DNA of 64,000 nt from a bacterium (GCA_021811315.1 JAJZPF010000001.1:206153-270152); one strand, 5' to 3'; positions 31,995-55,337 are shown, numbered from the stretch's first letter. Notes: a model not told the origin generated them from the sequence alone. Numbers and translations are program-made.

Positions 31995-32969
31995 TTAAAA
32001 TTTCTTCTTCAGCGTTATGCGCTGGGTGCTGCCCAAAGCGCCTTCAGGCGACATCGCATAATCCAGGTCGGCATTCATCAGTTTGATGCCCGCACCCGCG
32101 CTGAATGCGCCTGCTGCGCTTTGGCCCGAGCCACCATTGACACCGCCGCGCAGGCTAAGTCCAGTCATTGTTTCCGGCCCGCCGAACAAGGCGTATTCCG
32201 TGCCCAGGCTATAGGTTGTATTCTTGTCATACACATAACGCCTGGCGTCGAAATTCAGCATAAAACCCGCAACCGGCATAAACATTATACCGGCGCTCAC
32301 GCTTAAAGGCAACTGGTCTCTCTGGGAAATGTATTTAATGCCGGGGCCAAGGTTCTGGACAGCGACACCTACTGATACGGGTAGACCTCTTAAACCGCGT
32401 TTCACACCTATATCCACGGCGTAGCCTGTTCCCTTAACGCCTGCAATGGAACTTTCTATATATTTTACAGACCCGCCCACACTATATCTGCCGTATTGCT
32501 TAGCCAAGGCAAGACTTGCCGCCTGGTCGTAGGCTGAATAGCCGCCGCTTCTGGACCTGGAGGCCGTGCGGCCTTCCATACTGCCGCTGGATAGCCTTGC
32601 GAAACTTAAACCCATTTTCCACTTTGATGACCCCGGCAGTGCGAAACCCGCACCTATAAAGTCATGCACTGTGCCTAAATACAAGGCGCTATGGCTTAAA
32701 GCGGCCTCACCTTTACTCATTGAGGAAAGTCCGGCAGGATTATACGCTATGGCGCTTATTCCCATTGCGGACGCCGCCCCGGCCGAAGACATGGCCCCCG
32801 CCCTTGCGTCCGTGTCTATACGCAGAAACTCGGCGCCGCTTTCAAGCGCCTCACTTATTTTTACAGACGGGGTAAAAACAAACACAAGCGCCGCGCCCAA
32901 TACCCATGGCCTTGAAAGTAAATAGACAATGCGGTTCATCATGTCATGAGGGTTAGTTTTATCTTTCAT
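31995..32969 (-). CDS. PorV/PorQ-family outer-membrane beta-barrel
   Basis: 324-aa ORF. FLRIDTDARAGAMSSAGAA..AIAYNPAGL N-terminal signature, alternating beta-strand pattern, LPLSVSAGI, GTEYAL, DLDYAM near the C-terminus. The Shine-Dalgarno overlaps the stop of the giant gene. Confidence 0.65.
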   Translation of the reverse strand: MKDKTNPHDMMNRIVYLLSRPWVLGAALVFVFTPSVKISEALESGAEFLRIDTDARAGAMSSAGAASAMGISAIAYNPAGLSSMSKGEAALSHSALYLGTVHDFIGAGFALPGSSKWKMGLSFARLSSGSMEGRTASRSRSGGYSAYDQAASLALAKQYGRYSVGGSVKYIESSIAGVKGTGYAVDIGVKRGLRGLPVSVGVAVQNLGPGIKYISQRDQLPLSVSAGIMFMPVAGFMLNFDARRYVYDKNTTYSLGTEYALFGGPETMTGLSLRGGVNGGSGQSAAGAFSAGAGIKLMNADLDYAMSPEGALGSTQRITLKKKF

Positions 32970-32977
32970 AAGCCCTC

Positions 32978-35900
32978 CTATCTTACCACCGCGAACTTTC
33001 CGGTCTTCTTAAGTTTCTGGCCGGCTTTCTGCGCTTCTATGTAGTAAAGGTAGACCCCGGTCGGGATATGGCCGCGCCAGGTGTATTCATAGGCGTAGCT
33101 TAAGCCATTGCCGTCGTCCAGTTCGGCTGGCATCCCCGTAAGCGTGTATTCGTGCGCCGCCCTGCCGCTTACGGTGTAGATGGTTATTTTCACGCTGTCG
33201 GCTAGGCCGGTTTCGATATGAAAGGTGGGGGCCTCACTGCCCTTGGCGGGGTTAGGGAAGACATAGACCTCGCCGAGCCTGAACTCCGGGTCGGCCGCGG
33301 AGGCGAATACCCCGCCCTCGTCGGAAACACGGGTTCTCTTTACCTGTTCTGTGACCGAGACCGCGTAGCTGGCCGCCACCACCTGGTATTGAGAGAAATG
33401 CGGCACATCCGCTTTTACAAGCTTTGCCGAAGCATCCCGGCGTGAAGGCAGAAGTTCCCATGCGCCCGAAGTTTCGTTCCAGTAGGCGATAGCGAGTTTC
33501 TCGGGGGATTTCTCCGCTACATCATAAGGCAGGCTTATAGTCAGCGGCTTATCGAATTTGGAGCCTTCCGGGCCGAATTCATAAGCGGAACCGCGCCTGC
33601 CGAGGCGTCCAGCCTTAGCGGCACGCTCTTTACGCGCTTCGTTTTCTGTTCTGTCGCCATCGATGCTTAGGACATACAGCTCGCAGTCGTCTTTTACCGA
33701 CCCGGCCGGGGCGTCGAAAGCTGCGTGCTTGTGGTGCTCGCCATGGCCGCCGCCGCGGCGGCTTATCTTCTGGGGCCTTATTGTTCTTATTGTGCCCTCG
33801 GCGCTGAATTTTTTTCCATCGGCCAGCACGCCTGAGACAGTGATCTTAACCACGGCGTTCTCCGGCAGCAGCGGCATTACCTTTTCCCTGTCGAATTTAA
33901 CCGTGATCGAGCCGCACTCGATGGAATATTTTTTATGTTCTTTTTCTTTCTTCTCCTGAGCAAAGAGCGGATTCGCCAGCGGCTGGCCGTTGATGGCGCT
34001 AATATTTATAGTTTCGCGCTTGAAGCAGCCGGCAGATGCGGGGTCGATACGCAGCTCCGCGGTTATCGACTCACCTTCGCTCTTCAGGTTCAGGACTTCA
34101 GGTTTAACGTCGAGGCTTATCGAATACGCTGGCGCTGGGCTCGCCCGCAGCAACGCGTACAGCGAGGTATGGTAGATCTCGCCTTCCAAAGTAGCCGAGC
34201 CGTCCGCATTGAAAGTAACCTGCTGATTATAGATGGAGGCGCTGGTCCAGGCCACCGTTACCGTGTCGAAGTAATAGATGGCCACCGTGTTTGTGTCTAT
34301 CTCCGCAGGGTCGAACGTGAACTTAAGTTTTGCCGGTTCCGTGAATACTACGCCGCTCGGCAGCAGTTCATAAAACGCGCTCGACACCGGCGAAAGTCCT
34401 GCATCGGTCATAGCGGCGAACACAGGGGTCGTAGAAGATATAGTTTCTGTAGAAAGAGTGGTAACTGTCAGGTCGGCTCCCGGAGCCGTTACTATTAGAA
34501 GACCGTCATCGCTCGGAACGGGCACGGGGGTAACTTCAAGCAGCGCTTCGGCGCTGAAGATGCCGTAGCGGACCTTGACCCTGGTCTTACCGTATCCCGA
34601 CCCAGTGGCTAGTCCGCCATCGGGGCTGATGGCTGCGACCGTGTCATACGCAACCGACCAGGCCAGCCCGTCGGACGCGTCCAAAGCGCGCTTTGAGGCG
34701 TTGCTATAATTGGCGGAGACAGTGAACTGCTGTGTTTTCCCCTCTTCTACGGTAGCGGTGGAGGGAGCTATCACTATGGAGGTCAATGCGGGGCTTAATG
34801 CGCCTCTGAACCCGGAATCATATAATTCAGCCGACAAGCTGGACGAGCTGCCGTCGGAACCGCCGCAGACCAGCACTTTACCTCCGGGCAAGAGCAGGGC
34901 CGCGGCGTGATAACGCCTGCTCTGGCTCATAGAAGCCGTAATATAGAACGCTTCATCTGCTGGGTCGTAGAGCTCCGCCGAGGAAAGCGTGCTGCCGCTC
35001 GCGTATTCGTCGCCGCCGGCCACAAGCACATTCCCGTCGGGCAGCGAGACCGCGACATGACCGACCAATCTGCCGGCATTCGTGGAGCCCACGTCGGTAA
35101 AGGTCCCGGTAACCGGATCGTATACTTCGGCCACGAAAACCGCCACGCTGCCGTCATAACCGCCGATCACCAGCACTTTGCCGTCCGCCAGCGATACGGT
35201 TTCCACGAACTTACGCGCCCTTTTCATCTGCCCTGTCGTCGGCGCAAATGAGTTGTTAAGAGGATCGTATATCTCGGCCGTTGCCAGGGGTACGCCGTTC
35301 CCGAATCCGCCCACTATCAGCACTTTGCCGTCCGGCAATAATTCGGCGGAATGCAGATATCTGGGCGACGTCATCTCACCTGCCGGCGAGAACGTGCCTG
35401 CGACCGGATCGTACAATTCGGCCGAGGAAACCGGTCCGTTCTCGTCGGACCCGCCGGCTATCAACACCCTGCCGTCGGGCAATAGGGTGGAAGTGTGCGC
35501 ATACCTGCCGACCGCCATAGGGCCGGTTTTCGAGAAACCGAACGTGGATGGGTCGTACAGTTCGGCCAAGGTTATTACCGCGCTGCCGTTTATTCCCCCG
35601 GTCAGCAGCACCCGGCCGTCAGATAGCAGGGTGGCGGCATGGGTTCTGCCCCTGGGCTCGCTCATTGAACCGGTGACGGTAAATACCCCTGTTAGCGGGT
35701 TATATAACTCGGCCGAGGAAAGGATTCCGGAATCGCCGTTGCCGCCGGCGATCAGCGCCATCCCGTCAGGCAGCAAAGTAGCGGTATGAAGATGCCTGGG
35801 TTCCGTCATTGGACCTGTGGCAATAAATCTAGGCACGAACGGCAGAGCAGCGACTGTCAGCGCCGCGTCCGCGCTAAGGCTGCCGGAACTGACCGTGATA

Positions 35901-38900
35901 CGGGCCTGGCCAAAAGACACCCCCGTGGCCAGGCCGTCGGTGGTGATGTAAGCAACCGTCGCGGGGACAACGGACCAGGTCAGCCCGTCCGACACGCCTA
36001 GAACGCGGTTCGTGCCGTCGCTGAAATAACCCGTGGCCGCGTATTGCCGCGTGCCGCCGGGCTCTACGGTGGCGCTGGAGGGGTTTACAGTCATGGATTC
36101 AAGCAATGACGGAGAAGCAAAGCCGAAATTGTACAGTTCAGCCGAGGAACTGGAGGAACTGCCGTCGGAACCGCCGCAGACCAGAACTTTGCCGCCGGGC
36201 AGCAGCAGCGCCGCTGCGTGATAACGCCGGCTCTGGTTCATCGGAACCGTTAATGAAAATGTTTTGGAGGCCGGGTCGTAGACCTCAGCCGAAGAAATGG
36301 TGCCGCCGTCCGCGTACTCGTTGCCGCCGGCTACCAGCACTTCGCCGTTGGGCAGCAGAGTGGTGGTATGGCCGACCGATCTTCCCACATTGGTAAGGCC
36401 TGAGTCGGTAAAGGTCCCGGTAACCGGATCGTATACTTCGGATACCAAAACCGTCGCGCTGCCGTCATAACCGCCGATCACCAGCACTTTGCCGTCCGCC
36501 AATGATGCGGTTTCGACGAACTTACGCGCTCTTTTCATCTGCCCTGTCGTCGGTGCAAATGAGTTATTAAGAGGATCGTATATCTCGGCCGTTGCCAGGG
36601 GTACGCCGTTCCCGAATCCGCCTACTATCAGCACTTTGCCGTCCGGCAATAATTCGGCGGAATGCAGATATCTGGGCGACGTCATCTTACCTGCCGGAGA
36701 GAAAGTGTCTGCGACAGGATCGTACAATTCGGCCGAGGAAACCGGCCCGTTCTCGTCGGACCCGCCGGCTATCAAAACCCTGCCGTCTGACAATAAGGTA
36801 GCGGTGTGCGCGTACCTTCCAGTCGCCAGCGGGCCCGTTACCGAGAACTTGCCCGAGCCCGGGTTGTACAGCTCGGCCAGTGTGATCACAGCGCTGTTAT
36901 TTATACCGCCGGTCAGCAGCACCCGGCCGTCAGACAGCAGGGTGGCGGCATGGGTTCTGCCCCTGGGCTCGCTCATTGAACCGGTGACGGTAAATACCCC
37001 TGTTAGCGGGTTATATAACTCGGCCGAGGAAAGAATTCCCGAACTGCCGTTCCCACCGGCTATAAGCACGGTGCCGTCGGACAGCATGGTGGCGGTATGG
37101 AGATGCCTTGGTTCGGTCATGTCACCCGTGGAGGAAAACGAAGCCGGGACAGGAGTATAAATAAATAAACCTGCGGAAGCGCTAAAGCCGCCCAGACTGA
37201 CCCTGACCTGCGTTCTGCCATATCCGAGGCCGGTTATCAGGCCGTTCTGGTCAGCGGCTGCTACCGTGCTGTGGTCAACAGACCAGAGTGCCCCGTCGGA
37301 GGCGATAATAGTGCGTGTAGTTCCGTCGCTGAAGCTGCCCTGAGCCGTGAATTGCTGGCTGCTTCCGGGTTCCAGGAACACGAGAGGCGGGTTAAGCGTG
37401 AGAGAGGTCAGTTGGACAGGAGGCTTCACTTCAATATATATAGCTTTTCCAGTTTCCGCATTCCTGACATTGTCCACGCTTTGGTAATAAATAGTATAGC
37501 CGCCGACGGGGAGGTTGAACGGACCGGAGTAAAAACTGTTCTCACAGCTTCCCATCCCGTTTATGCCGCCGCTGGCCCATTCACTATACTCGCAGTCCTC
37601 CGGAGAGACGCCCACCAGGAAATAGGTAGTGGCCAGCCCGCTCATTACGCCGTTGGAAATGGTATCCGTCGCCACGAGCGTTATAAAGTCCGCAGTGGTA
37701 GCGTAGACGGTGGCGCTAGGGGCGATAGGGAGTCCGTTCAACTCAAGAGCGGACTCGGGCGGGGTGCTGTCTACGCGCAATTGGGCGAAATTCGTCTCGC
37801 CGAGATTGTCTATTTTGTCTATGGCGTAGTAGTGTATGGCGTGAGCCCCCTCGCCAAGCGGGAAAGGCCCGTCGTAAATCTTCGGCGCTGGTTCCGCGTC
37901 CAACTGATAATATGTGCTGGCCGCGCCGGCCAGGGCGAAAGTGTTGGAAGACCTGTCCTCGGCGGTCAGCTCCACCGGCGAAGAGGAGCTTATATAAACA
38001 GCGCCGTCTTTCTCAAAGGTGTTTTCCACTTTAAAGATCACCACCGGGCCGGCATTGTCGTACATGCTTAGAGGGGCCACCAGCGAGAAAAGCGAGTTGC
38101 TGCCGGAAAGCCTGGTCACGCAGTGGTCCGCGTCGGCCAGGTCCAGGGCGTATTCTTCGTCGGCGGTGCCTACAAGTCTTAGGTCTTCTTGCGTCCCGTT
38201 GTCCAGATAATGCCTGATCCCCAGCTGAACTGCTTCCGATGGAAGCATGCCGCAGGTTTTTATCTTTATGCCGGAATACAAGGCGCCGTCATATTTTATA
38301 TGCAGGGAGCGGTTTAAGCCGGGCGGATAGACGACATAATTTTTGGGCGCAGCCGGCGAGGGGACGCTTTCCATCGTCAGCTTGCTCCCCGGACCCGCGT
38401 TAAGGTTGTAAAAAGTGATAATGGAACCCTCGAAGCCGAATTTGACCCCGGCGGTTGTCGCGGAGGAGTTCCTGACAAAAGCCTCCGCCGGCCCGTTCGC
38501 GAGGGACGCTATGCTCTGGCCGGCAAGCGAAACAGTGCAGGCGTCGTTACAGATATTTTCCCCGTTTATTATATTGCAGATCTTCGGGGTTACGCTGACG
38601 GAGACGTTGCCGTGCAGCCATATCCCGGGTGTTGCAACCACCTGCGGAGTCAGGGAGGCCGAGGTAAGCGCGGCCGAAATTGAAACGCCATCAGGCAGGC
38701 CGTCCTCTATGGGAACGGTGAAAGTGTTCCGCGCCGAAGTTATTGTTATGGCGCAGGGCTCTCCGCTGGCCGTCACTTCCGAAATATAATTGGCCACCAG
38801 GTTGGTCTGCCCCGGAGCCACTTCTCCGCCTGCGGCGGTTTTTATGAACTCAAAGATGGGCTGGGGACTCCCGTTCCGGGCTTTGTCCTGGGCGCTGAAA

Positions 38901-41485
38901 ACGTAATAGCTGCCCGACTCTACGTTCAATTCCGGGGAGGTGAAAGGAATAAGTTCCCTGCTTCCCGGCATCGGCGCAAAATCATGATGTAAGCCGCCGC
39001 CATCCAGATGAAAAAAGTCCATGCCGCTGTTCGTGTCCTGCACCGTGCCGTGGATAGTATAGGTCCCGGCGGCCACATCCATGTCTACCCCGCCGATATT
39101 AAGCCGCGGACTTTCGGGGTCCACGCGGAACCACATGGTGGTGAAGTTACCTTTATTATCCCACACGGTCTGCTCATACAGCCCGTCTTCCAGGTTCAGC
39201 TCTATTTCCTGATTGTAGACATGAGGGGCATAAGAGAATTTGCGTACTACCGTATTGTCAGCGACGTTGCGGATGGTTATCTCTTTTATCCCGGAGCCGA
39301 TATCCCTGTAACTGAACCGGACCCGGTTCCAGGCTAAATCTATAGGCTCGGCTTCGGTGCCGCAGGTATCTCCGCCGCAGCCGTAGGCGAGGATGTGGTT
39401 CCTGTCCTCGTAGCCTATCGACGGCGGGAAGCCGGCCTCCACGCGCAGCGAGTGGAACTTGTCAGAGCCGCCGCCGGCGGGCATATAGCCGCTGGCGTCG
39501 CGGGTGAGCTCACGGGCGGGGTCTATATAGGATTTATCGGGGTCGATCTTAAAAAGCTCGTTGGACGTGCCCGCGATGTCCGCGCCCCTGATCTCCAGGG
39601 GAAGCATCGCATCCTGGAGATAGTAATTACCTATGGCCAAAGTGGAGACCTGCACCGAAGTGAACGGCGTAAAAGCATTATTGATGTTCACCAGCGAGGC
39701 TTCGAACATTGGCTCGCTGAAAGTGGTAATGACGGTGTACTCGCCGGGGACGATGGGCTCTTCCACGCTGGGCGCGTAGGACCGCAACATGGATTTATCG
39801 TCGAGCTCCCAAGAGCGTTTATAAAAGGTTGTGGTGCTTTGTTTCACTTCCACCTGCTTGACATAGGGGCGGAAGTTGTCGAGGGTAACCATCGTGGGAG
39901 CGCTGATAAAGCGTTCGGATTCTTCCCTATCCATGCTTTCTGCCACAGCAACCAGCCCGTACCGACCGTCTGGATAGGCCGCGTCCTCGTTGAGATTAGC
40001 TAGTACAGGCGGAATTTCGCCGGCGAAATCCTTGCGTATCCTCGTATTCCATTGGTTAAAAACAAATTCGGTTCTGGGTGTGGTGCTCAGGCTCCCGAGC
40101 GGGTTAAGCCCGGTTCTTGTGCCGTCGCTCCTGTAATCGTTTCCAGTATTGTTTATAAAAGGAGGGAAGGCATTATCCTCCTCGAATAAGGGGGAACCAC
40201 CCACAGTCCCGCCGTAATCGAATTCGGCGCGGAACGGATCAGCGGGGTCGGGAAGTTGGTCGGCGAATGTGGTTTGCACATCCCTATTGCCGTTTATGAG
40301 ATACGTATTAGCAGCCGCATCCGCTGGCGTCAAATTTGGGAGGACAGCTTCGGGGATAGCCATAAGCCTGAGCCGGTCCAGTTCATAGGAATGATAGGTT
40401 TTCCAATTCACTACTTCCGGCCCTGCCGGCCCTTCCACCACTTCCGGACGCCAGCGTATGCTGGCCTTCACACGCTCATTGTTATGGTCCATGGTGTGGT
40501 AAAGAATGCTTTCCTCCGTCGGAGTGGATACCTCACCTGAGAACTGGCTATGGCCGCGCGCGAGGTATTGCACTACATTATTCCAGCCGTCATTGAATAA
40601 AGGATTGCCTGGTTGTTTCCCGTTATAAAGCGTCAGGTCAGGGGAACTTACCTGCAAGTGGAGGTGAGCGTTATTGGTGCCGGATTTGCCCAGCGGAGCA
40701 ATTATTTCACCTGGACCCACCGCGGTTTGCGGGACAATATAGCCGGCCCTGGATTCGGCAATTTTATTGGGGCCGGCAGTTATATTGTTTCCATCATAAC
40801 CATCATCACCCTGTTTCAGGGTATTAAGAACTCCATCTGTGCCGCAGGAGACCACGATCGTGTTTTCATCTGGGGTCTGCGTTCCGACCGGCACAATCTG
40901 GTCATCTTTGCCTGCCTCGCTTTCCGGTACTTTGATTTGGAGATCAGTATGTATTCCGTCTATCCCCAAAGCCTGGACAATTCGCCCGGTTTGATTCAAG
41001 CCGGAGTAAAGAAGAACTACTCCCCTATTTACTATGCCCTCGGTATAAATTCTTTTATAGCTGCGTATTGGTGCGGTTTGTCCGACTCCGACAAAATTCC
41101 CGGATTCAATATCCTTGTGAGGGAAAATATGCAAATAAGCAAAATTTCTTCCGCCGCCGTAGTTGACTCCTATCCACTTAATCCCACTCCCGGTTTTGCC
41201 TATTCCAAAAATAGTGCCAAAACCAGCAGCGGTTACGGGGTAGTTTATATCTAAATCTCCAGACAAGTCTTTTGCATTAAGGTCTATGCCTTTATGAAAA
41301 AATGTGCCCACTGTGATTGGGTTGCCGTCAGCGTCAACCCCTAAATCCCTGGGACCATAGGCGGAATCAACACGGTATTCAATCCCGTAAGGGTCTATCG
41401 GCCAAGGCAAGACTTGCTGGGCTGAGACATCCACCAAAGGAAAAACAATAAAGCCAAGTGAAACAAGACACGACTTCAGGTTCAT
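32978..41485 (-). CDS. Giant secreted multidomain protein: signal peptide, split M23-like metallopeptidase head, 3 Big_2-like Ig domains, two 7-bladed Kelch propellers, T9SS-type C-terminal sorting domain
   Basis: 2,835-aa uninterrupted ORF. FHKGIDL and NAHLHLQ (M23 HxGxD / HxH). Big_2-like segments (e.g. LTLNPPLVFLEPGSSQQFTAQGSFSDG). 14 Kelch-type blades (PRxxHTATLLxDGxVLxxGG). C-terminus VYVFPNPAKG...ITIYTVSGR...GVYLYYIEA...KFAVVR. Confidence 0.85.
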   Translation of the reverse strand: MNLKSCLVSLGFIVFPLVDVSAQQVLPWPIDPYGIEYRVDSAYGPRDLGVDADGNPITVGTFFHKGIDLNAKDLSGDLDINYPVTAAGFGTIFGIGKTGSGIKWIGVNYGGGRNFAYLHIFPHKDIESGNFVGVGQTAPIRSYKRIYTEGIVNRGVVLLYSGLNQTGRIVQALGIDGIHTDLQIKVPESEAGKDDQIVPVGTQTPDENTIVVSCGTDGVLNTLKQGDDGYDGNNITAGPNKIAESRAGYIVPQTAVGPGEIIAPLGKSGTNNAHLHLQVSSPDLTLYNGKQPGNPLFNDGWNNVVQYLARGHSQFSGEVSTPTEESILYHTMDHNNERVKASIRWRPEVVEGPAGPEVVNWKTYHSYELDRLRLMAIPEAVLPNLTPADAAANTYLINGNRDVQTTFADQLPDPADPFRAEFDYGGTVGGSPLFEEDNAFPPFINNTGNDYRSDGTRTGLNPLGSLSTTPRTEFVFNQWNTRIRKDFAGEIPPVLANLNEDAAYPDGRYGLVAVAESMDREESERFISAPTMVTLDNFRPYVKQVEVKQSTTTFYKRSWELDDKSMLRSYAPSVEEPIVPGEYTVITTFSEPMFEASLVNINNAFTPFTSVQVSTLAIGNYYLQDAMLPLEIRGADIAGTSNELFKIDPDKSYIDPARELTRDASGYMPAGGGSDKFHSLRVEAGFPPSIGYEDRNHILAYGCGGDTCGTEAEPIDLAWNRVRFSYRDIGSGIKEITIRNVADNTVVRKFSYAPHVYNQEIELNLEDGLYEQTVWDNKGNFTTMWFRVDPESPRLNIGGVDMDVAAGTYTIHGTVQDTNSGMDFFHLDGGGLHHDFAPMPGSRELIPFTSPELNVESGSYYVFSAQDKARNGSPQPIFEFIKTAAGGEVAPGQTNLVANYISEVTASGEPCAITITSARNTFTVPIEDGLPDGVSISAALTSASLTPQVVATPGIWLHGNVSVSVTPKICNIINGENICNDACTVSLAGQSIASLANGPAEAFVRNSSATTAGVKFGFEGSIITFYNLNAGPGSKLTMESVPSPAAPKNYVVYPPGLNRSLHIKYDGALYSGIKIKTCGMLPSEAVQLGIRHYLDNGTQEDLRLVGTADEEYALDLADADHCVTRLSGSNSLFSLVAPLSMYDNAGPVVIFKVENTFEKDGAVYISSSSPVELTAEDRSSNTFALAGAASTYYQLDAEPAPKIYDGPFPLGEGAHAIHYYAIDKIDNLGETNFAQLRVDSTPPESALELNGLPIAPSATVYATTADFITLVATDTISNGVMSGLATTYFLVGVSPEDCEYSEWASGGINGMGSCENSFYSGPFNLPVGGYTIYYQSVDNVRNAETGKAIYIEVKPPVQLTSLTLNPPLVFLEPGSSQQFTAQGSFSDGTTRTIIASDGALWSVDHSTVAAADQNGLITGLGYGRTQVRVSLGGFSASAGLFIYTPVPASFSSTGDMTEPRHLHTATMLSDGTVLIAGGNGSSGILSSAELYNPLTGVFTVTGSMSEPRGRTHAATLLSDGRVLLTGGINNSAVITLAELYNPGSGKFSVTGPLATGRYAHTATLLSDGRVLIAGGSDENGPVSSAELYDPVADTFSPAGKMTSPRYLHSAELLPDGKVLIVGGFGNGVPLATAEIYDPLNNSFAPTTGQMKRARKFVETASLADGKVLVIGGYDGSATVLVSEVYDPVTGTFTDSGLTNVGRSVGHTTTLLPNGEVLVAGGNEYADGGTISSAEVYDPASKTFSLTVPMNQSRRYHAAALLLPGGKVLVCGGSDGSSSSSSAELYNFGFASPSLLESMTVNPSSATVEPGGTRQYAATGYFSDGTNRVLGVSDGLTWSVVPATVAYITTDGLATGVSFGQARITVSSGSLSADAALTVAALPFVPRFIATGPMTEPRHLHTATLLPDGMALIAGGNGDSGILSSAELYNPLTGVFTVTGSMSEPRGRTHAATLLSDGRVLLTGGINGSAVITLAELYDPSTFGFSKTGPMAVGRYAHTSTLLPDGRVLIAGGSDENGPVSSAELYDPVAGTFSPAGEMTSPRYLHSAELLPDGKVLIVGGFGNGVPLATAEIYDPLNNSFAPTTGQMKRARKFVETVSLADGKVLVIGGYDGSVAVFVAEVYDPVTGTFTDVGSTNAGRLVGHVAVSLPDGNVLVAGGDEYASGSTLSSAELYDPADEAFYITASMSQSRRYHAAALLLPGGKVLVCGGSDGSSSSLSAELYDSGFRGALSPALTSIVIAPSTATVEEGKTQQFTVSANYSNASKRALDASDGLAWSVAYDTVAAISPDGGLATGSGYGKTRVKVRYGIFSAEALLEVTPVPVPSDDGLLIVTAPGADLTVTTLSTETISSTTPVFAAMTDAGLSPVSSAFYELLPSGVVFTEPAKLKFTFDPAEIDTNTVAIYYFDTVTVAWTSASIYNQQVTFNADGSATLEGEIYHTSLYALLRASPAPAYSISLDVKPEVLNLKSEGESITAELRIDPASAGCFKRETINISAINGQPLANPLFAQEKKEKEHKKYSIECGSITVKFDREKVMPLLPENAVVKITVSGVLADGKKFSAEGTIRTIRPQKISRRGGGHGEHHKHAAFDAPAGSVKDDCELYVLSIDGDRTENEARKERAAKAGRLGRRGSAYEFGPEGSKFDKPLTISLPYDVAEKSPEKLAIAYWNETSGAWELLPSRRDASAKLVKADVPHFSQYQVVAASYAVSVTEQVKRTRVSDEGGVFASAADPEFRLGEVYVFPNPAKGSEAPTFHIETGLADSVKITIYTVSGRAAHEYTLTGMPAELDDGNGLSYAYEYTWRGHIPTGVYLYYIEAQKAGQKLKKTGKFAVVR
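34530..37425 (-). repeat. In-frame tandem duplication inside the giant gene: about 2.2 copies of a 1,311-nt (437-codon) Big_2 + 7-blade Kelch unit
   Basis: Sequence at 34861 and at 36172 aligns with a 1,311-nt offset. The plus-strand shadow ORFs 35178..35789 and 36489..37160 are near-identical. A third Big_2 copy lies at about 34530-34790. Confidence 0.85.
39181..39885. repeat. ~0.7-kb block near-identical to 42622..43326 (3' end of the head-only paralog)
   Basis: Direct nucleotide alignment with a constant offset of 3,441 nt. Only scattered mismatches, plus one ~45-nt divergent patch (39246-39290). Confidence 0.85.
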
Positions 41486-41496
41486 AACCTTTCCTT

Positions 41497-42402
41497 TTAA
41501 AACTGTAGCTTCTCTGTCTTAACCCGTCTTGTCTTGATATCCCAAAAATGAATAATTGTAATCTCTCGTTTGTCTTCAGAAATATTCATTTTTTCTATAT
41601 TTTTAAATGCCGAATTAGGAATAGTGAGTTTGTTTAGCTCAAATTTGTTCTCTTTTGTATCAAACACGCTTATCGCGGCCTTGCCGCCGGGAATTAAATC
41701 ATCTACCAGTAAGATATATCTGTCGTTATCTGAAAAAAAAGTTGGGCCAAGAAAGGAAACTTCAGCTAAAATTTCTTTTCTTAGATTTAAAATTTTTAGA
41801 CCTTCACTTTCTCCAACGGTCACAGCAAAAAATTGTCCAGTATTAGAAACCAGAGGGTTCCAGCCTTCCGTATTGTTTAGCGTTAATATTTCTTTCCCTT
41901 CCGCGTTATACACTCTGGCAATAGAAGTGTTTTCAACCGGGTCCTCCGCATATTCACTGTCGGATTTAATGTCCGCGTATTCCACAAAATCTAGGCGCGA
42001 CTCTTCTAGCACTAGGTATTTTTTATTATCACTAATCCGTGCAGAATTGCTTTCCTGCCTTACATGCTCAATATCCCTGCCGCTATGCTTGCGGAGCGAT
42101 TCAATGGCCTCTGCCACGGCTGTACTTATATTCACCTTTAACCCGGAGCGGTCGAAAACCTTCTCTTTGCCTATATGTGTTCGGATTTCTGTTTCCCCCA
42201 CACCAAGTTCTTTTACTTTCTTCCCACTCTTATCATGGAAGCGGATAACTTTGTGGTTATTCTCAAAGACTTCTTCAATTCGTTGGTTGGGGCTTGCCAC
42301 CTGCGGGATATCCTTGGCTTTAGTGGGCGTCGGCTCCGTATCTTTTGCCAGCAACATCGTGGCTAAAGCAGAAATCATCAATAAAGCTATAAAGCTTTTC
42401 AT
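41497..42402 (-). CDS. Small secreted protein, copy 1 (beta-propeller-like; unknown function), first gene of the giant-protein operon
   Basis: 301-aa ORF. Signal peptide MKSFIALLMISALATMLLA. Conserved NQRIEEVFENNHK..RFHDK. Blade-like ISDNKKYLVLE, VSNTGQFFAVT, FSDNDRYILLV. AGGAGAG Shine-Dalgarno. Paralog of 44901..45812. Confidence 0.75.
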   Translation of the reverse strand: MKSFIALLMISALATMLLAKDTEPTPTKAKDIPQVASPNQRIEEVFENNHKVIRFHDKSGKKVKELGVGETEIRTHIGKEKVFDRSGLKVNISTAVAEAIESLRKHSGRDIEHVRQESNSARISDNKKYLVLEESRLDFVEYADIKSDSEYAEDPVENTSIARVYNAEGKEILTLNNTEGWNPLVSNTGQFFAVTVGESEGLKILNLRKEILAEVSFLGPTFFSDNDRYILLVDDLIPGGKAAISVFDTKENKFELNKLTIPNSAFKNIEKMNISEDKREITIIHFWDIKTRRVKTEKLQF

Positions 42403-42518
42403 AAGTCTCTCCTGTGCGTTTTGCTTCAGTGCGGTACGGTGGCGGTGTGGTTCTCAGCGGTGTTGTGTAAACCCCAATTGCCTGCCCATGTTATAGCAGA
42501 CAAAACTCCGAGATTCAA
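42403..42518 (-). promoter_or_regulatory. Sigma70-like promoter (TTGAAT-17-TATAAC) plus ~80-nt C/A-rich 5' UTR, copy 1
   Basis: Minus strand: -35 at 42518..42513 and -10 at 42495..42490. The leader CAGGCAATTGGGGTTTACACAACACCGCTGAGAACCACACCGCCACCGTACCGCACTGAAGCAAAACGCACAGGAGAGACTT precedes the ATG. It is duplicated at 45813..45929. Confidence 0.55.
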
Positions 42519-42613
42519 TGCTTTGGCACTCAATTTATATTTAATTTATAATAATCAATTTATGGGGCAGTAACTTCTTCATGCGCGCAACCTGTCGCTT
42601 CTCTGGTTAGCAC

Positions 42614-44884
42614 TCATAATAAGCCGTCCTCCAGGTTCAGCTCTATTTCCTGATTGTAGACATGAGGGGCATAAGAGAATTTGCGTTCCGGGGTTGCCGA
42701 CGTGCTTATGCGGATGCTTATCTCCCGTATCCCGGAGCCGATATCGGCGTAGCTGAACCGGACCCGGTTCCAGGCTAAAGCGATAGGCTCGGCTTCGGTG
42801 CCGCAGGTATCTCCGCCGCAGCCGTGGGCGAGGATGTGATTCCTGTCCTCGTAGCCTATCGACGGCGGGAAGCCGGCCTCTACATGCAGCGAGTGGAACT
42901 TGTCCGAGCCGCCGCCGGCGGGCATATAGCCGCTGGCGCCGCGGGTGAGCTCCAGGGCGGGGTCTATGTAGGATTTATCGGGGTCGATCTTTAAAAGCTC
43001 GTTGGCCGTGCCCGCGATGTCCATGCCCCTGATCTCCAAGGGAAGCATCGCGTCCTGGAGATAGTAATTACCTATGGCCAGAGTGGAGACCTGCACCGAA
43101 GTGAACGGCGTAAAAGCATTATTGATGTTCACCAGCGAGGCTTCGAACATGGGCTCGCTGAAAGTGGTAATGACGGTGTACTCGCCGGGGACGATGGGCT
43201 CTTCCACGCTGGGTGCGTAGGACCGCAACATGGATTTATCGTCGAGCTCCCAAGAGCGTTTATAAAAGGTTGTGGTGCTTTGTTTCACTTCCACCTGCTT
43301 GACGTAGGGGCGGAAGTTGTCGATGGTTATCATCTTAGGGTAGCTGATAAAACGCTCGGATACTTCCCGATCGACGCTTTCCGCCACTGCGATCAGGCCA
43401 TATTGGCCATCCGGATAGGCTGCGTCTTCATTGCGGTACGCCAAGCCGGTAAAACTTTTATTTATTCCTGTGTTCCATTGGTTGAAAACAAAATCGGTTA
43501 TCGGAGTGACCGCAAGGTCCCCTTGGGGGTTAAGGCCAGTTGTTGCTCCGTAGCTTCTGAAACCGGCCCCGGTATTACCAATAAAAGGCGGGAAGGCTAT
43601 GTCGTTGTACGCACCACCGTAATTGAATTCAGCACGAAAAGTGTCACTAGACACAGGAAGTTGCAGCGCTGTTGTTATGGGGCTTCTATTCCCATTTATC
43701 AGGTAGGTATTATCCGCAATAAGGCTTGCAAAATCCAATGTCTCTTGCGCTACTTTGTCTGGAATGACGTATATTTTCACCCTGTCCAATTCATATGGAT
43801 GATAGATTTGCCAGTCAGCTCCTACCGGACGCCAGCGTATACTAGCCGTCACACGTTCATTGTTGTGGTCATCAGTGTGGTAGAGTGTGCTGTTATCCGT
43901 GGGAACAGAAATTCCGCCGGAAAACTGACTATAATCATGCACAAGATACTGAATTACATTATCCATCCCGTCGTTGTAATCGGCGCCTGCAGATGGATCA
44001 TTCGCAAGTTTCTCATCTGCGTGGCTTATCTGCAAGTGTAGATGCGAGTTGTTTGCGCCTGATTTCCCCAATGGCGCTATTATTTCCCCAGAAATAATTG
44101 TGGTTCTAGGCACAATATAACCAGCTTTTGAGTCAGCAATTTTATTTATCCCGGCGTTTATGCATGTTTTATCGACAGAATACTCATCATCCCCCTGAGG
44201 AAGCGTGTCTAAAACCCCATCATTACCAGCACAAACGACCGAAGTATCTGAAGCAGGGGTTGGGCTATATTGTGGAATCGGCTGGGTATCAAGCGCTCCA
44301 GGAACTGCTATTTCCAGATTATTATGCATGGGGCTTATTCCCAACGCTTTAACTATCCGCCCGGTATTTTTGCCGTTTAAAACCGAACCGGAATAAAAAA
44401 GAATAATTCCCATATTGTTGTCATCAATATTATTGGCATTTTTAGTGATAATCCTGCGGTAGCTTCTTATTTGATTGTTCTGGGCAATCTGATTATTTAC
44501 CACATCACTGATGTCACCGACGACAACAGCGCTATTGTTGGGGAAAATATGCAGATATGCAAGTGTGCGATTATTTCCATAATCCACTCCGATCCATTCT
44601 ATGCCATCACTGGCACGACCTATCCCAAAAATAGTGCCATCGCCTGGGGCTATTATTGGCTGATTAAGATCCGCATCTCCGGTGTTCCCACCAGTGTTTT
44701 GTTCATTCAAGTCAAGGCCTTTATGAAAAAAAGTGCCTCTGACAACATTTCTGGGACCGTAAGCAGATTCCACTCGGTAAGGGTATCCCTCGGGGTCGGA
44801 GGGCCAGGGCAATAATTGGGCGTAGGCCGAAATTGCTGAACAGGCAATTACGCCGACAATAAAAAAATACCGTTTAAATCTCAT
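42614..44884 (-). CDS. Head-only paralog of the giant protein (signal peptide + split M23-like domain + conserved middle region), truncated at the duplication junction
   Basis: 756-aa intact ORF. FHKGLDL and NSHLHLQ motifs. The last ~235 aa are nearly identical to giant-protein residues encoded at 39181-39885. It ends ...NLEDGLL* where the giant continues ...NLEDGLYEQTVW. No Big_2, Kelch or CTD. Confidence 0.75.
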   Translation of the reverse strand: MRFKRYFFIVGVIACSAISAYAQLLPWPSDPEGYPYRVESAYGPRNVVRGTFFHKGLDLNEQNTGGNTGDADLNQPIIAPGDGTIFGIGRASDGIEWIGVDYGNNRTLAYLHIFPNNSAVVVGDISDVVNNQIAQNNQIRSYRRIITKNANNIDDNNMGIILFYSGSVLNGKNTGRIVKALGISPMHNNLEIAVPGALDTQPIPQYSPTPASDTSVVCAGNDGVLDTLPQGDDEYSVDKTCINAGINKIADSKAGYIVPRTTIISGEIIAPLGKSGANNSHLHLQISHADEKLANDPSAGADYNDGMDNVIQYLVHDYSQFSGGISVPTDNSTLYHTDDHNNERVTASIRWRPVGADWQIYHPYELDRVKIYVIPDKVAQETLDFASLIADNTYLINGNRSPITTALQLPVSSDTFRAEFNYGGAYNDIAFPPFIGNTGAGFRSYGATTGLNPQGDLAVTPITDFVFNQWNTGINKSFTGLAYRNEDAAYPDGQYGLIAVAESVDREVSERFISYPKMITIDNFRPYVKQVEVKQSTTTFYKRSWELDDKSMLRSYAPSVEEPIVPGEYTVITTFSEPMFEASLVNINNAFTPFTSVQVSTLAIGNYYLQDAMLPLEIRGMDIAGTANELLKIDPDKSYIDPALELTRGASGYMPAGGGSDKFHSLHVEAGFPPSIGYEDRNHILAHGCGGDTCGTEAEPIALAWNRVRFSYADIGSGIREISIRISTSATPERKFSYAPHVYNQEIELNLEDGLL
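42622..43326. repeat. ~0.7-kb block near-identical to 39181..39885
   Basis: See the partner feature. The offset of 3,441 nt equals 1,147 codons, so the two copies are in the same reading frame. Confidence 0.85.
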
Positions 44885-44900
44885 ACACCTCTATCCCTTT

Positions 44901-45812
44901 TCAAAAACGCACACGATCTATTTCGTTCCCTTTTGCCACCCTGACGTGAAACGGTTCGTGCGAAATTACTATTTCACGTTTATCTTCTAAAATCTCTATT
45001 TTTTTGATATTTTTAAATACCAAATTAGAAACAACTAGTTTCCTTAGTTCAAATTTATCGTTTTGTGTATCAAACACGCTGATTGAAGATTTATCTGAAC
45101 CATAGGTCATCTCTGTGAAGATTATAAATCTCTCTCTTTCTGAAAAAAGCGCTCCCCCCGAAAAATATGGTATTTCAGCTAGTATTTCCTTTTTGCGATT
45201 CATAATCCTTTGTTTTCCATATTCGCCTACTACTACAATGAATATCTGGCCGGTATTAGACACAATCGGTCGCCATCCCTCGTCCTTGCTTAATTCCAAA
45301 ACTTTATTGCCGTCTGAATCGTAAACGGTGGTGACGCAACCTGTTTCAGTGGGGTCTTCCGATCGTTCGCCGTCACTTGCCTCAGCAAAGTCCACAAAAT
45401 CCAGATAACCATCCTCAACAACAACAAACTGTTTGTTGCCGCTAAAAGACACTTCCTTAAGCTCACTGCGATATAATTCCACGTCGCGGCCGGAACTTTT
45501 CCGCATTTCCTCAATTGTTTCAGCTATTTTGGAGCTGATTTTTAGTCCGAAACTTGAGTGATCAAAGATTTTCTCTTTGCTTACACGTATTTTGGTTTCT
45601 TTTGATACAAGGTCTATATCTTTTGTTTTCTTCCCATCCTTGTCATGGAAGCGGAGAAGTTTGTGATTGTTTTCGAAGACTTCCTCAATCCGCTGATTGG
45701 GCTTTGCCGCTTGAGCATCTTCCTTGTCTTTGGCGGCAACTGGCACCGTATCTTTTGCTGACAATAAGGTACCGAAAACGAAAAACGACAATAAAGCTAT
45801 AAGGCTTTTCAT
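44901..45812 (-). CDS. Small secreted protein, copy 2 (paralog of 41497..42402)
   Basis: 303-aa ORF. Signal peptide MKSLIALLSFFVFGTLLSA. Same NQRIEEVFENNHK.LRFHDK motif and blade-like segments. 16-nt gap to the head-only M23 paralog. Confidence 0.75.
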   Translation of the reverse strand: MKSLIALLSFFVFGTLLSAKDTVPVAAKDKEDAQAAKPNQRIEEVFENNHKLLRFHDKDGKKTKDIDLVSKETKIRVSKEKIFDHSSFGLKISSKIAETIEEMRKSSGRDVELYRSELKEVSFSGNKQFVVVEDGYLDFVDFAEASDGERSEDPTETGCVTTVYDSDGNKVLELSKDEGWRPIVSNTGQIFIVVVGEYGKQRIMNRKKEILAEIPYFSGGALFSERERFIIFTEMTYGSDKSSISVFDTQNDKFELRKLVVSNLVFKNIKKIEILEDKREIVISHEPFHVRVAKGNEIDRVRF

Positions 45813-45929
45813 AAAGTCTCCCCTGTGCGTCTTGCTTCAGTGTGGTACGGTGGCGGTGTGGTTCTCAGCGGTGTTGTCTAAACCCAAATTGCCTGCCCAT
45901 GTTATAGCAGACAAAACCCGGGTATTCAA
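45813..45929 (-). promoter_or_regulatory. Sigma70-like promoter (TTGAAT-17-TATAAC) plus conserved C/A-rich 5' UTR, copy 2
   Basis: Minus strand: -35 at 45929..45924 and -10 at 45906..45901. The leader differs from copy 1 at only a handful of positions. Confidence 0.55.
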
Positions 45930-46058
45930 TGCTTTCCGATTTAAGTTATATTTGATTTATGACAGTCGAATCAGAGATTGTAATCCTTTATAAATGCGCG
46001 TAACTTGCCGCATCCCTGGTCAGTCAGCCATAGTAAAGAGTATGGGGCGGGGATTGAT

Positions 46059-46092
46059 AAATGTCAATACCTATTTCATGGTATTGACATTT
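46059..46092 (-). terminator. 13-bp perfect hairpin downstream of the kdsC-operon genes (possible terminator or insulator before the island)
   Basis: aaatgtcaatacc-tatttcat-ggtattgacattt. On the minus strand it is followed by ATCAAT, so only weakly U-rich. Confidence 0.35.
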
Positions 46093-46151
46093 CGGTGCTG
46101 GGATTAATGACGCAGGGATGGAGTGCTTGCGGGCGTGTTTCAGTAGTAGGT

Positions 46152-46610
46152 CTAGGTTTTCTTCTTGGTTGTTTTTGGTTTTTCTTGGGGCCGTTTCAGC
46201 TCCAGTTTAAAAATATCCAATCCGCCCCACGGGCCGTTCTGCAGGTGGAAAACCACCGTAACTTTTTTCCCGGCCGCGTCCCTGAAATCGGCCGACACGG
46301 CCCTCCCGCCGTTTTCCCCCGCCTGCGCCTTGGGTTCGATGGAAGCTAATTCTAGTTTGAATATTTTTTTCGAGGCTTTGTCTTCGATGAGGAAGGCTCC
46401 CTTAAGCTGCATGTCCTTGCGGATATAATCCGTCACGAAGGCCGCCAGGTCCTCGTCGCTCTGCTGGATCAGGGCCAGGTCTTCGTCCTCGTCGCCGTTC
46501 CTGACGGTCTCGGTGGAGGCCGCCGCTTCCGTCAGTCCTTCGTCCTCGAAAGCCGCCGCCGCCGGGCCCGCGAAGCACAGCGCCAGCGCCGCTAAAATAA
46601 AAAATTTCAT
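46152..46610 (-). CDS. Secreted acidic/basic hypothetical protein
   Basis: ATG at 46610 (ATGA overlap with the kdsC stop, GGGGGAAG Shine-Dalgarno). Signal peptide MKFFILAALALCFAGPAAAA. 152 aa. Confidence 0.6.
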   Translation of the reverse strand: MKFFILAALALCFAGPAAAAFEDEGLTEAAASTETVRNGDEDEDLALIQQSDEDLAAFVTDYIRKDMQLKGAFLIEDKASKKIFKLELASIEPKAQAGENGGRAVSADFRDAAGKKVTVVFHLQNGPWGGLDIFKLELKRPQEKPKTTKKKT

Positions 46611-47233
46611 TTCTTCCCCCCGGTTTTTGAAAATCTGACTATTTTCAGCTGGCTTTTTTTTATCTGCGGCCAATGGGCGGTCTCCACATAGTTCATCACC
46701 GTCTTCCAATGCCCCTGGCTCTTAAGGATGAAATCGCAGGCTTCGCGCACCGCGCCCAGGCCGCCTTCTTTTTTCGTCACCAAATGCGAAGCGGCTTTAA
46801 CTTCGTCCAGGGCGTTCGCGGGCGCGCAGGCCAGCCCGGCTTTTTTCAGGACGGGGATATCGGTCCAGTCGTCGCCCATGTAAGCGACGTTCTCGGGCTT
46901 GAGGCCGGTGGCGGCCAGGATCTGCATGAGCGGTTCCAGCTTCGAGAGGAAGCCCTGGTAGGCGTAGCCCATGCCCAGCCCGCGGGCCCGCTCCTCGGTG
47001 CCCGGCGATTCGCGGCCGGTTATCACGCCGGTGGCGACGCCGAACTGGTTTAAAAGCCGCAGGCCGATGCCGTCCAGCGAATGGAAGGCTTTTATCTCGA
47101 CCATTTCGGCGCCTTTGCCGGGGATATAGTACATCTTCCCGTCGGTGAGGACCCCGTCCACGTCCATCAGGAAGATCTTTATCTTTTTCGCGCGCGCGGC
47201 GTTGGTTTTCAGGCTCATAGTTTCATTATCCAT
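46607..47233 (-). CDS. kdsC: 3-deoxy-D-manno-octulosonate 8-phosphate phosphatase (HAD-IIIA)
   Basis: FLMDVDGVLTDG, GVITGRES, YMGDDWTDIPVLKKAGLACAP. An alternative start at 47218 would form an ATGA overlap with the epimerase stop. Confidence 0.85.
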   Translation of the reverse strand: MDNETMSLKTNAARAKKIKIFLMDVDGVLTDGKMYYIPGKGAEMVEIKAFHSLDGIGLRLLNQFGVATGVITGRESPGTEERARGLGMGYAYQGFLSKLEPLMQILAATGLKPENVAYMGDDWTDIPVLKKAGLACAPANALDEVKAASHLVTKKEGGLGAVREACDFILKSQGHWKTVMNYVETAHWPQIKKSQLKIVRFSKTGGKK

Positions 47234-48216
47234 TTTCTCGCAAGCTCGAGTTCGCTTTTTCTCGAAGCGTAATTCGCCGGGGCGGGCCCGGTGTAGCTGA
47301 AAAGATACCAGTTAATAGTTTCCTCGAGCCAGGCCGCGGCCGGCGTGGAGGCCCAGCCCAGCTCTTTTTCGGCTTTAGAGATGTCCAGCACGAAGTCCCC
47401 GCCCATGGAGAAAGGGGAGGCTTCGAAATTAAAGCCGTTTTCTTTGAGCCAGGCATAGTCCGGGTAGAGGATCTCGGCCTCTTTGTGCATCACCCTTGCG
47501 GAGATCTTCACGAAATCGTCCAGGGTCAGCGGCTGGGAGTCCCCTAAATTATAGACCTTGCCGTAGGGCTCTTCGGAATAAATAAGGGTTTCTATGGCCC
47601 GGGCCAGATCTTTGGAGAAGATAAACCGGTTATTAAAAGCGAAACCGGGAAGGAAGATCGGCCCCCCCCCGGCCAGCCGGAGCCAGTAGGAGTAGGCCCG
47701 CAGGGTGTGATCGTTGGGGCCTATCACTACGGGCGGGCGTATTATAGCCGCGGGAAATTTCTTTTCGAGGAAAGCTTTAAGATATTCCCGCTCGGCGGCG
47801 TATTTCCCCAGGCCGTAGGCGTATTTTTCTTTAAGCTGCGGCTTGAGGGCCAGAAGCTCAGTCTGGTTCTCCCTGAACGGGGAGGAGGAGCCCTCCAGGA
47901 CCGAATAGACCGAGGCGGAGGAGGTGAAGAGGTAGAGCCCTGTGCGGCCGCTGAAAACCCTTATGGCTTTCTGCGCGTCCTCCGCGGTAAAGCAGATATT
48001 GTCGATTATTACGTCCCAGGGCTCCACGGCCATCCGCGACAGGTCTATTTCAACGGTGCGGTCCCCCCGGGTCTGGCGGATGTCCAGCGGCAGGCCTTCC
48101 ACGGGGGCGCGCCTGGAAAAAACGGTGACTTCATTGCCCGCTTTGTGAAGGCGGATGGCCGTTTCTTTGCCGAAAAAGCTCGTGCCGCCGAGGATAAGTA
48201 TTCTCATAACGATCAA
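47215..48216 (-). CDS. NAD-dependent epimerase/dehydratase (extended SDR) family protein
   Basis: 333-aa ORF. ILILGGTSFFGKETAIRL Rossmann motif and YxxxK region (YGLGKYAAE). Contains a G9 homopolymer at 47662-47670. Confidence 0.85.
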   Translation of the reverse strand: MIVMRILILGGTSFFGKETAIRLHKAGNEVTVFSRRAPVEGLPLDIRQTRGDRTVEIDLSRMAVEPWDVIIDNICFTAEDAQKAIRVFSGRTGLYLFTSSASVYSVLEGSSSPFRENQTELLALKPQLKEKYAYGLGKYAAEREYLKAFLEKKFPAAIIRPPVVIGPNDHTLRAYSYWLRLAGGGPIFLPGFAFNNRFIFSKDLARAIETLIYSEEPYGKVYNLGDSQPLTLDDFVKISARVMHKEAEILYPDYAWLKENGFNFEASPFSMGGDFVLDISKAEKELGWASTPAAAWLEETINWYLFSYTGPAPANYASRKSELELARKWIMKL

Positions 48217-55249: not shown

Positions 55250-55337
55250 CCTGTCGAGGCTTCGCCTCGACATAAAACTTATTGAGGCTCAACCTCGATA
55301 GGGAATCTGATTTGTGCTTGTTATTTAAGGAGAATAT

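Follow-up and report, generated by a model that had tools for sequence, protein, structure and literature searches.

We analyzed a 64,000-nucleotide (nt) stretch of an uncultured Elusimicrobia genome from a metagenome assembly (GCA_021811315.1, JAJZPF010000001.1:206153-270152; here, the window), in which two adjacent units on the minus strand encode related secreted proteins (Table 1). Each unit contains a promoter-like site, a C/A-rich leader, a gene for a secreted protein of ~300 amino acids (aa; S1 in unit 1 and S2 in unit 2), and an M23-like head. The head of unit 1 forms the N terminus of a giant gene, the body of which includes an OmpL47-type barrel, Big_2 domains, and two Kelch propellers, followed by a weak C-terminal tail resembling those of the type IX secretion system (T9SS). 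The head of unit 2 stands as a gene of its own (here, the truncated gene or copy). A repeat search and a blastn comparison of positions 38000 to 42620 with positions 42621 to 47500 revealed that the units are collinear, adjoining direct repeats (39183-42610 and 42624-46023) without a spacer. The offsets between paired matches range from 3378 to 3441 nt, and neither search detected repeat homology past the outer ends at 39183 and 46023. A tandem duplication had been proposed from a first reading of this DNA (here, the original prediction). Its coordinates were right to ~10 nt, and the second promoter-like site, the second small secreted protein, and the head-only M23-like open reading frame without a body and C-terminal tail that it described are all present. 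The self-alignment suggested along with it placed the ends of homology near the junction (42610 and 42624) and at 46023.

Table 1. Features of the duplicated locus and its immediate surroundings, with positions counted from the first nucleotide of the window
Feature	Position	Strand	Description
324-aa gene directly downstream of giant gene	31995..32969	-	Weak PorV/FadL-type outer-membrane barrel hits; outside the duplication
Giant full-length gene	32978..41485	-	2835 aa; signal peptide, split M23-like head, mid/neck, body, tail
Homogenized block, full-length gene	39176..39880	-	Codons 536-770
S1	41497..42402	-	301 aa, secreted, beta-propeller-like predicted fold; ends 11 nt upstream of giant gene
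U1 intergenic (truncated head to S1)	42403..42613	-	Promoter-like site and C/A-rich leader
Duplication junction	42612..42622	-	Head codon ~770 joined to distal upstream DNA across TATG microhomology
Head-only M23-like gene	42614..44884	-	756 aa; signal peptide, all catalytic motifs; ends "LEDGLL*"
Homogenized block, truncated gene	42620..43321	-	Codons 522-755; 92.5% nt identity to 39176-39880
S2	44901..45812	-	303 aa, secreted paralogue of S1 (48% aa identity), other S clade
U2, unit 2 upstream DNA	45813..46037	-	Promoter-like site
blastn match between units	39183-40171 = 42624-43597		86%
blastn match between units	40441-40768 = 43822-44146		68%
blastn match between units	41199-41308 = 44619-44737		70%
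blastn match between units	41561-41673 = 44971-45083		77%
blastn match between units	42161-42610 = 45571-46023		76%

The truncated copy tracks the full-length gene up to ...CTGGAGGACGG and then reads CTTATTATGAGTGCTAACCAGAG...; at the junction, the truncated copy reads ...CTGGAGGACGGCTTATTATGA and the full-length gene reads ...CTGGAAGACGGGCTGTATGAGCAG. Past the stop codon of the truncated gene, the DNA aligns with the upstream DNA of unit 2 (...CTTTACTATGGCTGACTGACCAGGG...), and the stop codon therefore lies no more than ~10 nt from the junction. The two parents of the junction have a TATG microhomology in common, and the TGA stop codon (42616-42614) is located inside it. Direct reading of the junction thus agrees with the original prediction that the stop codon coincides with the junction (here, to within 10 nt) and that the sequence after it resembles the upstream DNA of copy 2.

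Divergence between the two units varies strongly along their length, a point that the original prediction missed. Nonsynonymous and synonymous divergence (dN and dS) was calculated by the Nei-Gojobori method, sliding codon identity was computed along the heads, and breakpoints were located by a maximum chi-square scan with 300 permutations. Over head codons 1 to ~525, the truncated and full-length copies share ~55% aa identity, with a third-position identity of 0.3 to 0.55, compared with 100% aa identity and a third-position identity of 0.95 to 0.97 over codons 539 to 618. The corresponding values are a dS of 2.9 (saturated) and a dN of 0.35 for the N part of the head versus 0.17 and 0.054 for the C part; S1 and S2 differ with a dS of 2.0 and a dN of 0.42. 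The transition is a sharp breakpoint at codon 535 (maximum chi-square, 223.5; reached in 0 of 300 permutations), where nucleotide differences drop from 38.3% (5' of the breakpoint) to 7.5% (3' of it). Divergence is also uneven within the 3' block, as follows: (i) codons 536 to 630 contain six differences, all synonymous (~2%), and the first ~290 nt of the block are ~98% identical; (ii) codons 631 to 739 differ by roughly 5 to 10%; (iii) codons 740 to 747 form a fully diverged patch inside an otherwise similar block; and (iv) the final 63 nt ahead of the junction are again 98% identical. One event without later exchange would be expected to leave uniform divergence, and dS instead ranges from 0.17 to 2.9. 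Given the saturated dS in the S genes and head codons 1 to 535 and the 65% identity of the distal intergenic DNA, the units therefore appear to be ancient paralogues or alleles. The topology of an A-B-C to A-B'-B-C duplication thus stands, but the "classic" event of a single age in the original prediction does not.

To place the two copies among their relatives, we divided the head into three segments and compared each of these among 13 heads of related loci. Codons 536 to 770 are the least conserved head segment between lineages (33 to 47% aa identity), yet they are 92% identical between the window copies, each of which is ~70% identical in this segment to the heads of L012 and L005_up. Over codons 1 to 340, the full-length head is 77% identical to that of L005 and 65% identical to that of L012, and the truncated head is 50 to 55% identical to every other head. 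The truncated gene is a chimera in this sense, because its N part derives from a deep lineage and its C part from the lineage of its neighbor. Since synonymous sites are conserved in the 3' block as well, constraint at the protein level is excluded as the cause. From this mosaic, we infer that gene conversion within the locus, limited on one side by the point where homology stops at the junction, is the best explanation; the copies would look young beside the junction because their last ~235 codons have been overwritten.

Both window heads contain the M23 motifs H-x3-D, Y-x-H, and H-x-H in order, and the motif residues H64/D68 (FHKGxD), H119 (AYLHIF), and H274/H276 (HLH) are invariant in both copies and in P0002. 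M23 enzymes are zinc peptidoglycan endopeptidases. The PF01551 scores of the window proteins (23.5 and 24.8 bits) fall below the gathering cutoff (28.7 bits) because an insertion of ~130 to 140 aa interrupts the M23 domain; the homologous heads of L006 and L005_up reach 33.8 and 48.2 bits, respectively. No sequence relative of the head with a solved structure was found at an E value of ≤0.1. The M23 part is followed by a "mid" domain (profile positions ~410 to 680; window positions 39446 to 40255 in the full-length gene) that matches no Pfam family and is widespread, an exhaustive profile search having retrieved 267 representative proteins at an E value of ≤0.001, mostly at residues ~300 to 600 of proteins of 450 to 3400 aa. 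The tail of the giant gene scores 17.3 bits against TIGR04183 (cutoff, 23) and 17.6 bits against PF18962 (cutoff, 27), and the truncated copy does not contain this T9SS-like tail. The head-only product would be a Sec-exported M23-type protein with neither the repeat body nor the weak T9SS-like tail. We propose that it acts as a soluble M23-type peptidoglycan peptidase, periplasmic or secreted, that is produced along with an S partner of its own, and that the downstream giant copy displays the equivalent head on a giant surface protein. In the literature on Elusimicrobia with M23 and T9SS, we found nothing relevant.

The S proteins carry a signal peptide, and the AlphaFold model of S is all-beta and propeller-like, with a predicted local distance difference test score (pLDDT) of 82. 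Foldseek returned only generic beta-propeller matches for this model (template modeling score, 0.3 to 0.38), and S had neither a family match nor a PADLOC defense-system match. The family is rare, with 13 homologues among 5.8 billion proteins, the named ones originating from metagenome-assembled genomes of Elusimicrobiales/Elusimicrobiota. It comprises an S1 clade (P0004, P0006, P0010, and P0012) and an S2 clade (P0005, P0009, and P0011). S and the N terminus of the M23 protein diverge and recombine together, which suggests that they interact; on this pattern, S may be a partner, inhibitor, or immunity protein of the M23 head.

The two units carry equivalent promoter-like sites on the minus strand, each consisting of TTGAAT, a 17-nt spacer, and TATAAC with TGC preceding the -10 hexamer (TTGAAT at 42518-42513 and TATAAC at 42495-42490 in U1; 45929-45924 and 45906-45901 in U2). 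From the -35 hexamer to the ATG, U1 and U2 are identical at 110 of 119 positions (92%); between the junction and the -35 hexamer, they are identical at 70 of 107 positions (65%), with 9 additional gap positions. The -10 core TG(C/T)TATAA and the start of the leader are kept in five other genomes, and the motifs of the proximal region conserved across genomes comprise CTTG.., a 17-nt spacer, TG(C/T)TATAA, and then GGGG...GGGTTACAC. This conservation implies that functional constraint accounts for at least part of the 92% identity between the proximal promoter and leader sequences of the two units. In each unit, the -10 hexamer and the start of the transcript lie within an imperfect inverted repeat (TTGTCTGC...GCAGGCAA; 45914-45889 and 42503-42478, minus strand), which could represent an operator or a 5' hairpin. 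The C/A-rich leader had no Rfam match at an E value of ≤1 across positions 39000 to 46500. Shine-Dalgarno-like sequences precede both heads, 11 to 16 nt past the S stop codon (GAGGTG for the truncated gene and AAGGAAAGG for the giant gene). No intrinsic terminator was found between the truncated gene and U1, and read-through into S1 is therefore possible.

Homologous loci occur in other genomes in several arrangements. A single-unit state (i.e., S followed by a giant gene) was found in L003, L006, and L008, which have the same head and tail and a body of NHL/IPT instead of Kelch repeats; the C-terminal tail of ~100 aa is kept between genomes, with 58 to 90% identity. Several of the other loci contain a partial paralogue upstream. 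L002, L025, and L026 start within the last part of a head gene ("...DGKY.LVVLDKSGKYKGI.NYIIG..V*"), after which come the conserved promoter, S, and a head. L002 (JBTSFX010000187.1) is a 3,477-bp contig with an exact terminal overlap of 33 nt, i.e., an assembly-graph cycle of 3,444 bp (head tail, promoter, S, and head), a period almost equal to that of the window repeat. L004 and L009 carry a head fragment ending 14 residues past "DGKYVQ," followed by a copy of the promoter and leader and an IS630-type element. L014 and L015 encode a 618-aa protein that resembles the head only at residues ~494 to 800, followed by promoter, S, and head; L014_up had no Pfam hit, and no M23 domain was detected in it. 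The upstream protein of L005 (1237 aa) has a compact M23 domain together with the neck and 553 aa of the body; S and a head follow. The first 112 nt of L007 are identical to part of the body of its own downstream giant gene. Orthology between the truncated copy and these upstream partial paralogues was considered and is not supported, as the latter are equidistant from it or without a detectable M23 domain, and their ends differ. Given these differing ends and the lack of clear orthology, we read the upstream paralogues as a recurrent tendency of the locus and not as one inherited event. The loci L025 and L026, from different samples, are 99 to 100% identical except for a sharp-edged stretch of ~1.07 kb (L025, 694-1760; L026, 865-1931) with 45 to 70% identity, which covers the 3' half of S and the first ~205 head codons. 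The variant S in this comparison is 93% identical to the S of L011. By its sequence, this difference is an allelic cassette replacement.

Taken together, these data show that the window contains a real tandem pair of functional-looking units and make it probable that the units are old and that a 0.7-kb block has recently been homogenized by gene conversion. An illegitimate, microhomology-mediated junction would have joined head codon ~770 to distal upstream DNA, yielding a 756-aa secreted protein without body or tail. Both old units would have been kept functional by purifying selection, and the last ~235 codons of the truncated gene would repeatedly have been overwritten by the neighboring full-length gene, or in the reverse direction, with codons 536 to 630 representing the latest conversion tract. 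Several points weigh against this explanation. The truncation lies ~22 residues before the end point of comparable upstream proteins in other genomes. A conserved stretch ("...YxQxVxDNxGxxTTMWFRVD") is run through by the full-length homologues and forms the end of the upstream proteins of L002, L004, and L014; because "LEDGLL*" ends ~22 residues short of it, the last domain may be incomplete and unable to fold. For the domain that the junction interrupts, the AlphaFold model (pLDDT, 43) is too poor to decide and hints only at two strands past the junction. The M23 assignment of both window proteins stays below the Pfam cutoff. Finally, no close relative has an S2-type unit directly upstream, and L005 and L012, the nearest to unit 1, carry other DNA there; an old duplication therefore implies that these lineages lost the unit, unless the upstream unit came in by import.

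Such an import is the basis of a less probable scenario, to which we nonetheless assign appreciable weight. The duplication or insertion would be recent, with a junction as young as the 98% tract, and the promoter-distal DNA, S, and head codons 1 to 535 of one unit would then have been replaced through homologous recombination with a divergent allele of another strain; alternatively, a circularized foreign U-S-head fragment would have integrated by a single crossover. The sharp-edged replacement that distinguishes L025 from L026 demonstrates that such exchanges occur in this family, the S2 clade has members in other organisms (P0009 and P0011, 62 to 63% identical), and the nearest relatives of unit 1 are without the S2 unit upstream. 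However, a near-identical S2/head donor allele was not found among 5.8 billion proteins with a word-based, insensitive search (best, 63%), and the 3' block, which combines no fewer than three levels of divergence and includes the diverged codons 740 to 747, is fitted better by repeated exchange than by one recent event. It is improbable that the truncated copy is a dead or dying by-product that is open by chance only, even though it ends inside a conserved domain, ~22 residues short of the other upstream paralogues, and is without the body and sorting tail. Even at 38% nucleotide divergence, its reading frame stays open for 756 codons, with the 3' truncation at the junction as its only defect. 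The 14 indel events that separate it from the full-length head are all in frame, the dN/dS of its N part is ~0.12 (an approximate value, as dS is saturated), and the catalytic residues are invariant. A promoter-like site and a ribosome-binding site of its own accompany it, as does a partner gene, S2, that is intact though diverged. With no frameshift or internal stop codon relative to the intact paralogue and a dN/dS not near 1, the decaying pseudogene that the original prediction had offered as its alternative was rejected. An assembly artefact, through tandem joining of two strain alleles or misresolution of a repeat, is unlikely and in our judgment the least credible of these scenarios. The metagenomic source and the resemblance of the units to alternative alleles speak for it. 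On the other side, the longest exact run common to both units (89 nt) is shorter than the k-mer in the name of the contig (k=141; ena:ERZ27237050:k141_336134; 208,661 bp), and the exact proteins with the same neighbors occur on three long contigs (281,854 bp in one case). The junction sequence is unique and could not result from the joining of two alleles. In addition, a Logan assembly of an independent read set (SRR13189623) contains two contigs 100% identical to 42462..39833 and 45873..43274, each of which starts and ends exactly where the units become near-identical, as predicted for a genome with both units under a short-k assembler. An assembly chimera or strain collapse was rejected on the combined evidence of the 89-nt run, the three contigs, and the independent read set.

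Duplication followed by gene conversion is a known and fairly ordinary kind of event; the gene family is poorly known and belongs to an uncultured phylum. The tufA and tufB genes of Salmonella are an example of duplicated bacterial genes that evolve in concert through gene conversion, and the window locus resembles them in having two paralogues with one segment near-identical even at synonymous sites, diverged flanks, and sharp tract ends. Unlike in tufA and tufB, homogenization here is confined to the 3'-terminal 0.7 kb of the truncated copy, the remainder (including the partner gene) being saturated, and the homogenized block is the fastest-evolving part between lineages. Rhs/CdiA polymorphic toxin loci carry orphan toxin-immunity cassettes. 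The likeness to these orphans consists of a partial copy beside a giant gene, a divergent variable domain with an adjacent small partner gene, a block of near identity to the main gene (0.7 kb; 92.5%) that could mediate swapping, and an arrangement that recurs in relatives. The geometry is mirrored, however, with an N-terminal variable domain, the partner gene upstream, and the extra copy upstream; moreover, the extra copy has its own promoter-like site and start codon and is thus presumably not silent, and S is without a family match; any toxin or immunity role here would be putative. SprB-type adhesins are giant cell-surface repeat proteins with a type IX secretion C-terminal domain. The giant proteins resemble them in size, in Ig-like/Kelch/NHL/IPT repeat bodies, in the conserved ~100-aa tail, and in the PorV/FadL-like barrel gene that follows; they differ in that the tail and barrel hits are all below curated cutoffs and a T9SS is not established for Elusimicrobia here. 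In type VI secretion systems (T6SS), M23-domain antibacterial effectors are paired with immunity proteins, such as the Tpe effectors of Acinetobacter baumannii (PMC6833914). The window heads share with M23 peptidases and these effectors the ordered H-x3-D, Y-x-H-L, and H-x-H motifs, signal peptides, and a covarying small exported partner. In contrast to the T6SS effectors, their M23 domain is split by ~130 to 140 aa, scores below the Pfam cutoff, and, instead of being T6SS cargo, forms the N terminus of a giant repeat protein that ends in a T9SS-like tail.

By analogy with these systems, we tentatively suggest that S and the N-terminal M23 region might form a hypervariable effector/partner cassette, possibly a peptidoglycan-hydrolase toxin with a periplasmic immunity protein or inhibitor, that Elusimicrobia would swap through homologous recombination in its two conserved flanks (the promoter/leader and the "neck" block), with the upstream unit serving as an expressed reserve cassette. 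We consider this doubtful at present. The recurrent upstream partial paralogues, the cassette-like swap between strains, and the homogenization of the neck within the genome are compatible with it; a recombinant with a truncated-type head on a giant body was not found in the word-based, insensitive search. If correct, deletion between the 0.7-kb direct repeats, or conversion, could transfer the reserve cassette to the giant surface protein, and the locus would mirror, at the N terminus, the Rhs/CdiA orphan toxin-immunity arrays. An effector/partner pair would also provide an entry point to cell-cell antagonism or cell wall remodeling in a phylum with almost no experimental biology. More generally, identity beside a duplication junction can mislead, as copies may be young at the junction and ancient elsewhere. 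The module itself is rare and uncharacterized: a secreted beta-propeller-like protein and an M23-type head that evolve together, are highly variable, and recombine, with the head located at the tip of giant surface proteins of Elusimicrobia.

Other features of the region were also recorded. The body of the giant gene contains a second, internal tandem duplication (34544-35820 versus 35864-37131) of two ~1.28-kb modules, each with a Big_2 domain and a Kelch propeller (80% nucleotide identity). The barrel-like gene downstream of the giant gene has counterparts at the equivalent position in L003 (20275-21183) and L006 (7881-8771); the three proteins are 300 to 324 aa long, with hits all below the cutoff, and their recurrence after the giant gene suggests a dedicated outer-membrane partner. 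The G+C content is 40% in the S genes (41497-42402 and 44901-45812) and 45 to 50% in the head N parts (43323-44884), compared with 58% in the window and 56 to 57% in the homogenized block; the low values may reflect amino acid composition or foreign origin. Insertion sequences (IS630-type elements with DDE_3 and HTH domains and another transposase) repeatedly interrupt homologous giant-gene loci of other Elusimicrobia (L004, 1687-2747; L009, 4314-5389; L005, 7091-8166; L020, 896-2191). In L016 (positions 1 to 150), the promoter region of an S2-clade unit directly adjoins a gene fragment for the N terminus of a DnaB-like helicase, and the join lies at a GCGCGCATTTTATAAA motif that is also found in distal U1 and U2 of the window. 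ParA- and ParB-family genes identified with Pfam lie at 54407-56207 on the plus strand, ~8 to 10 kb from the locus, and the region may therefore be close to the chromosome partition/origin region.

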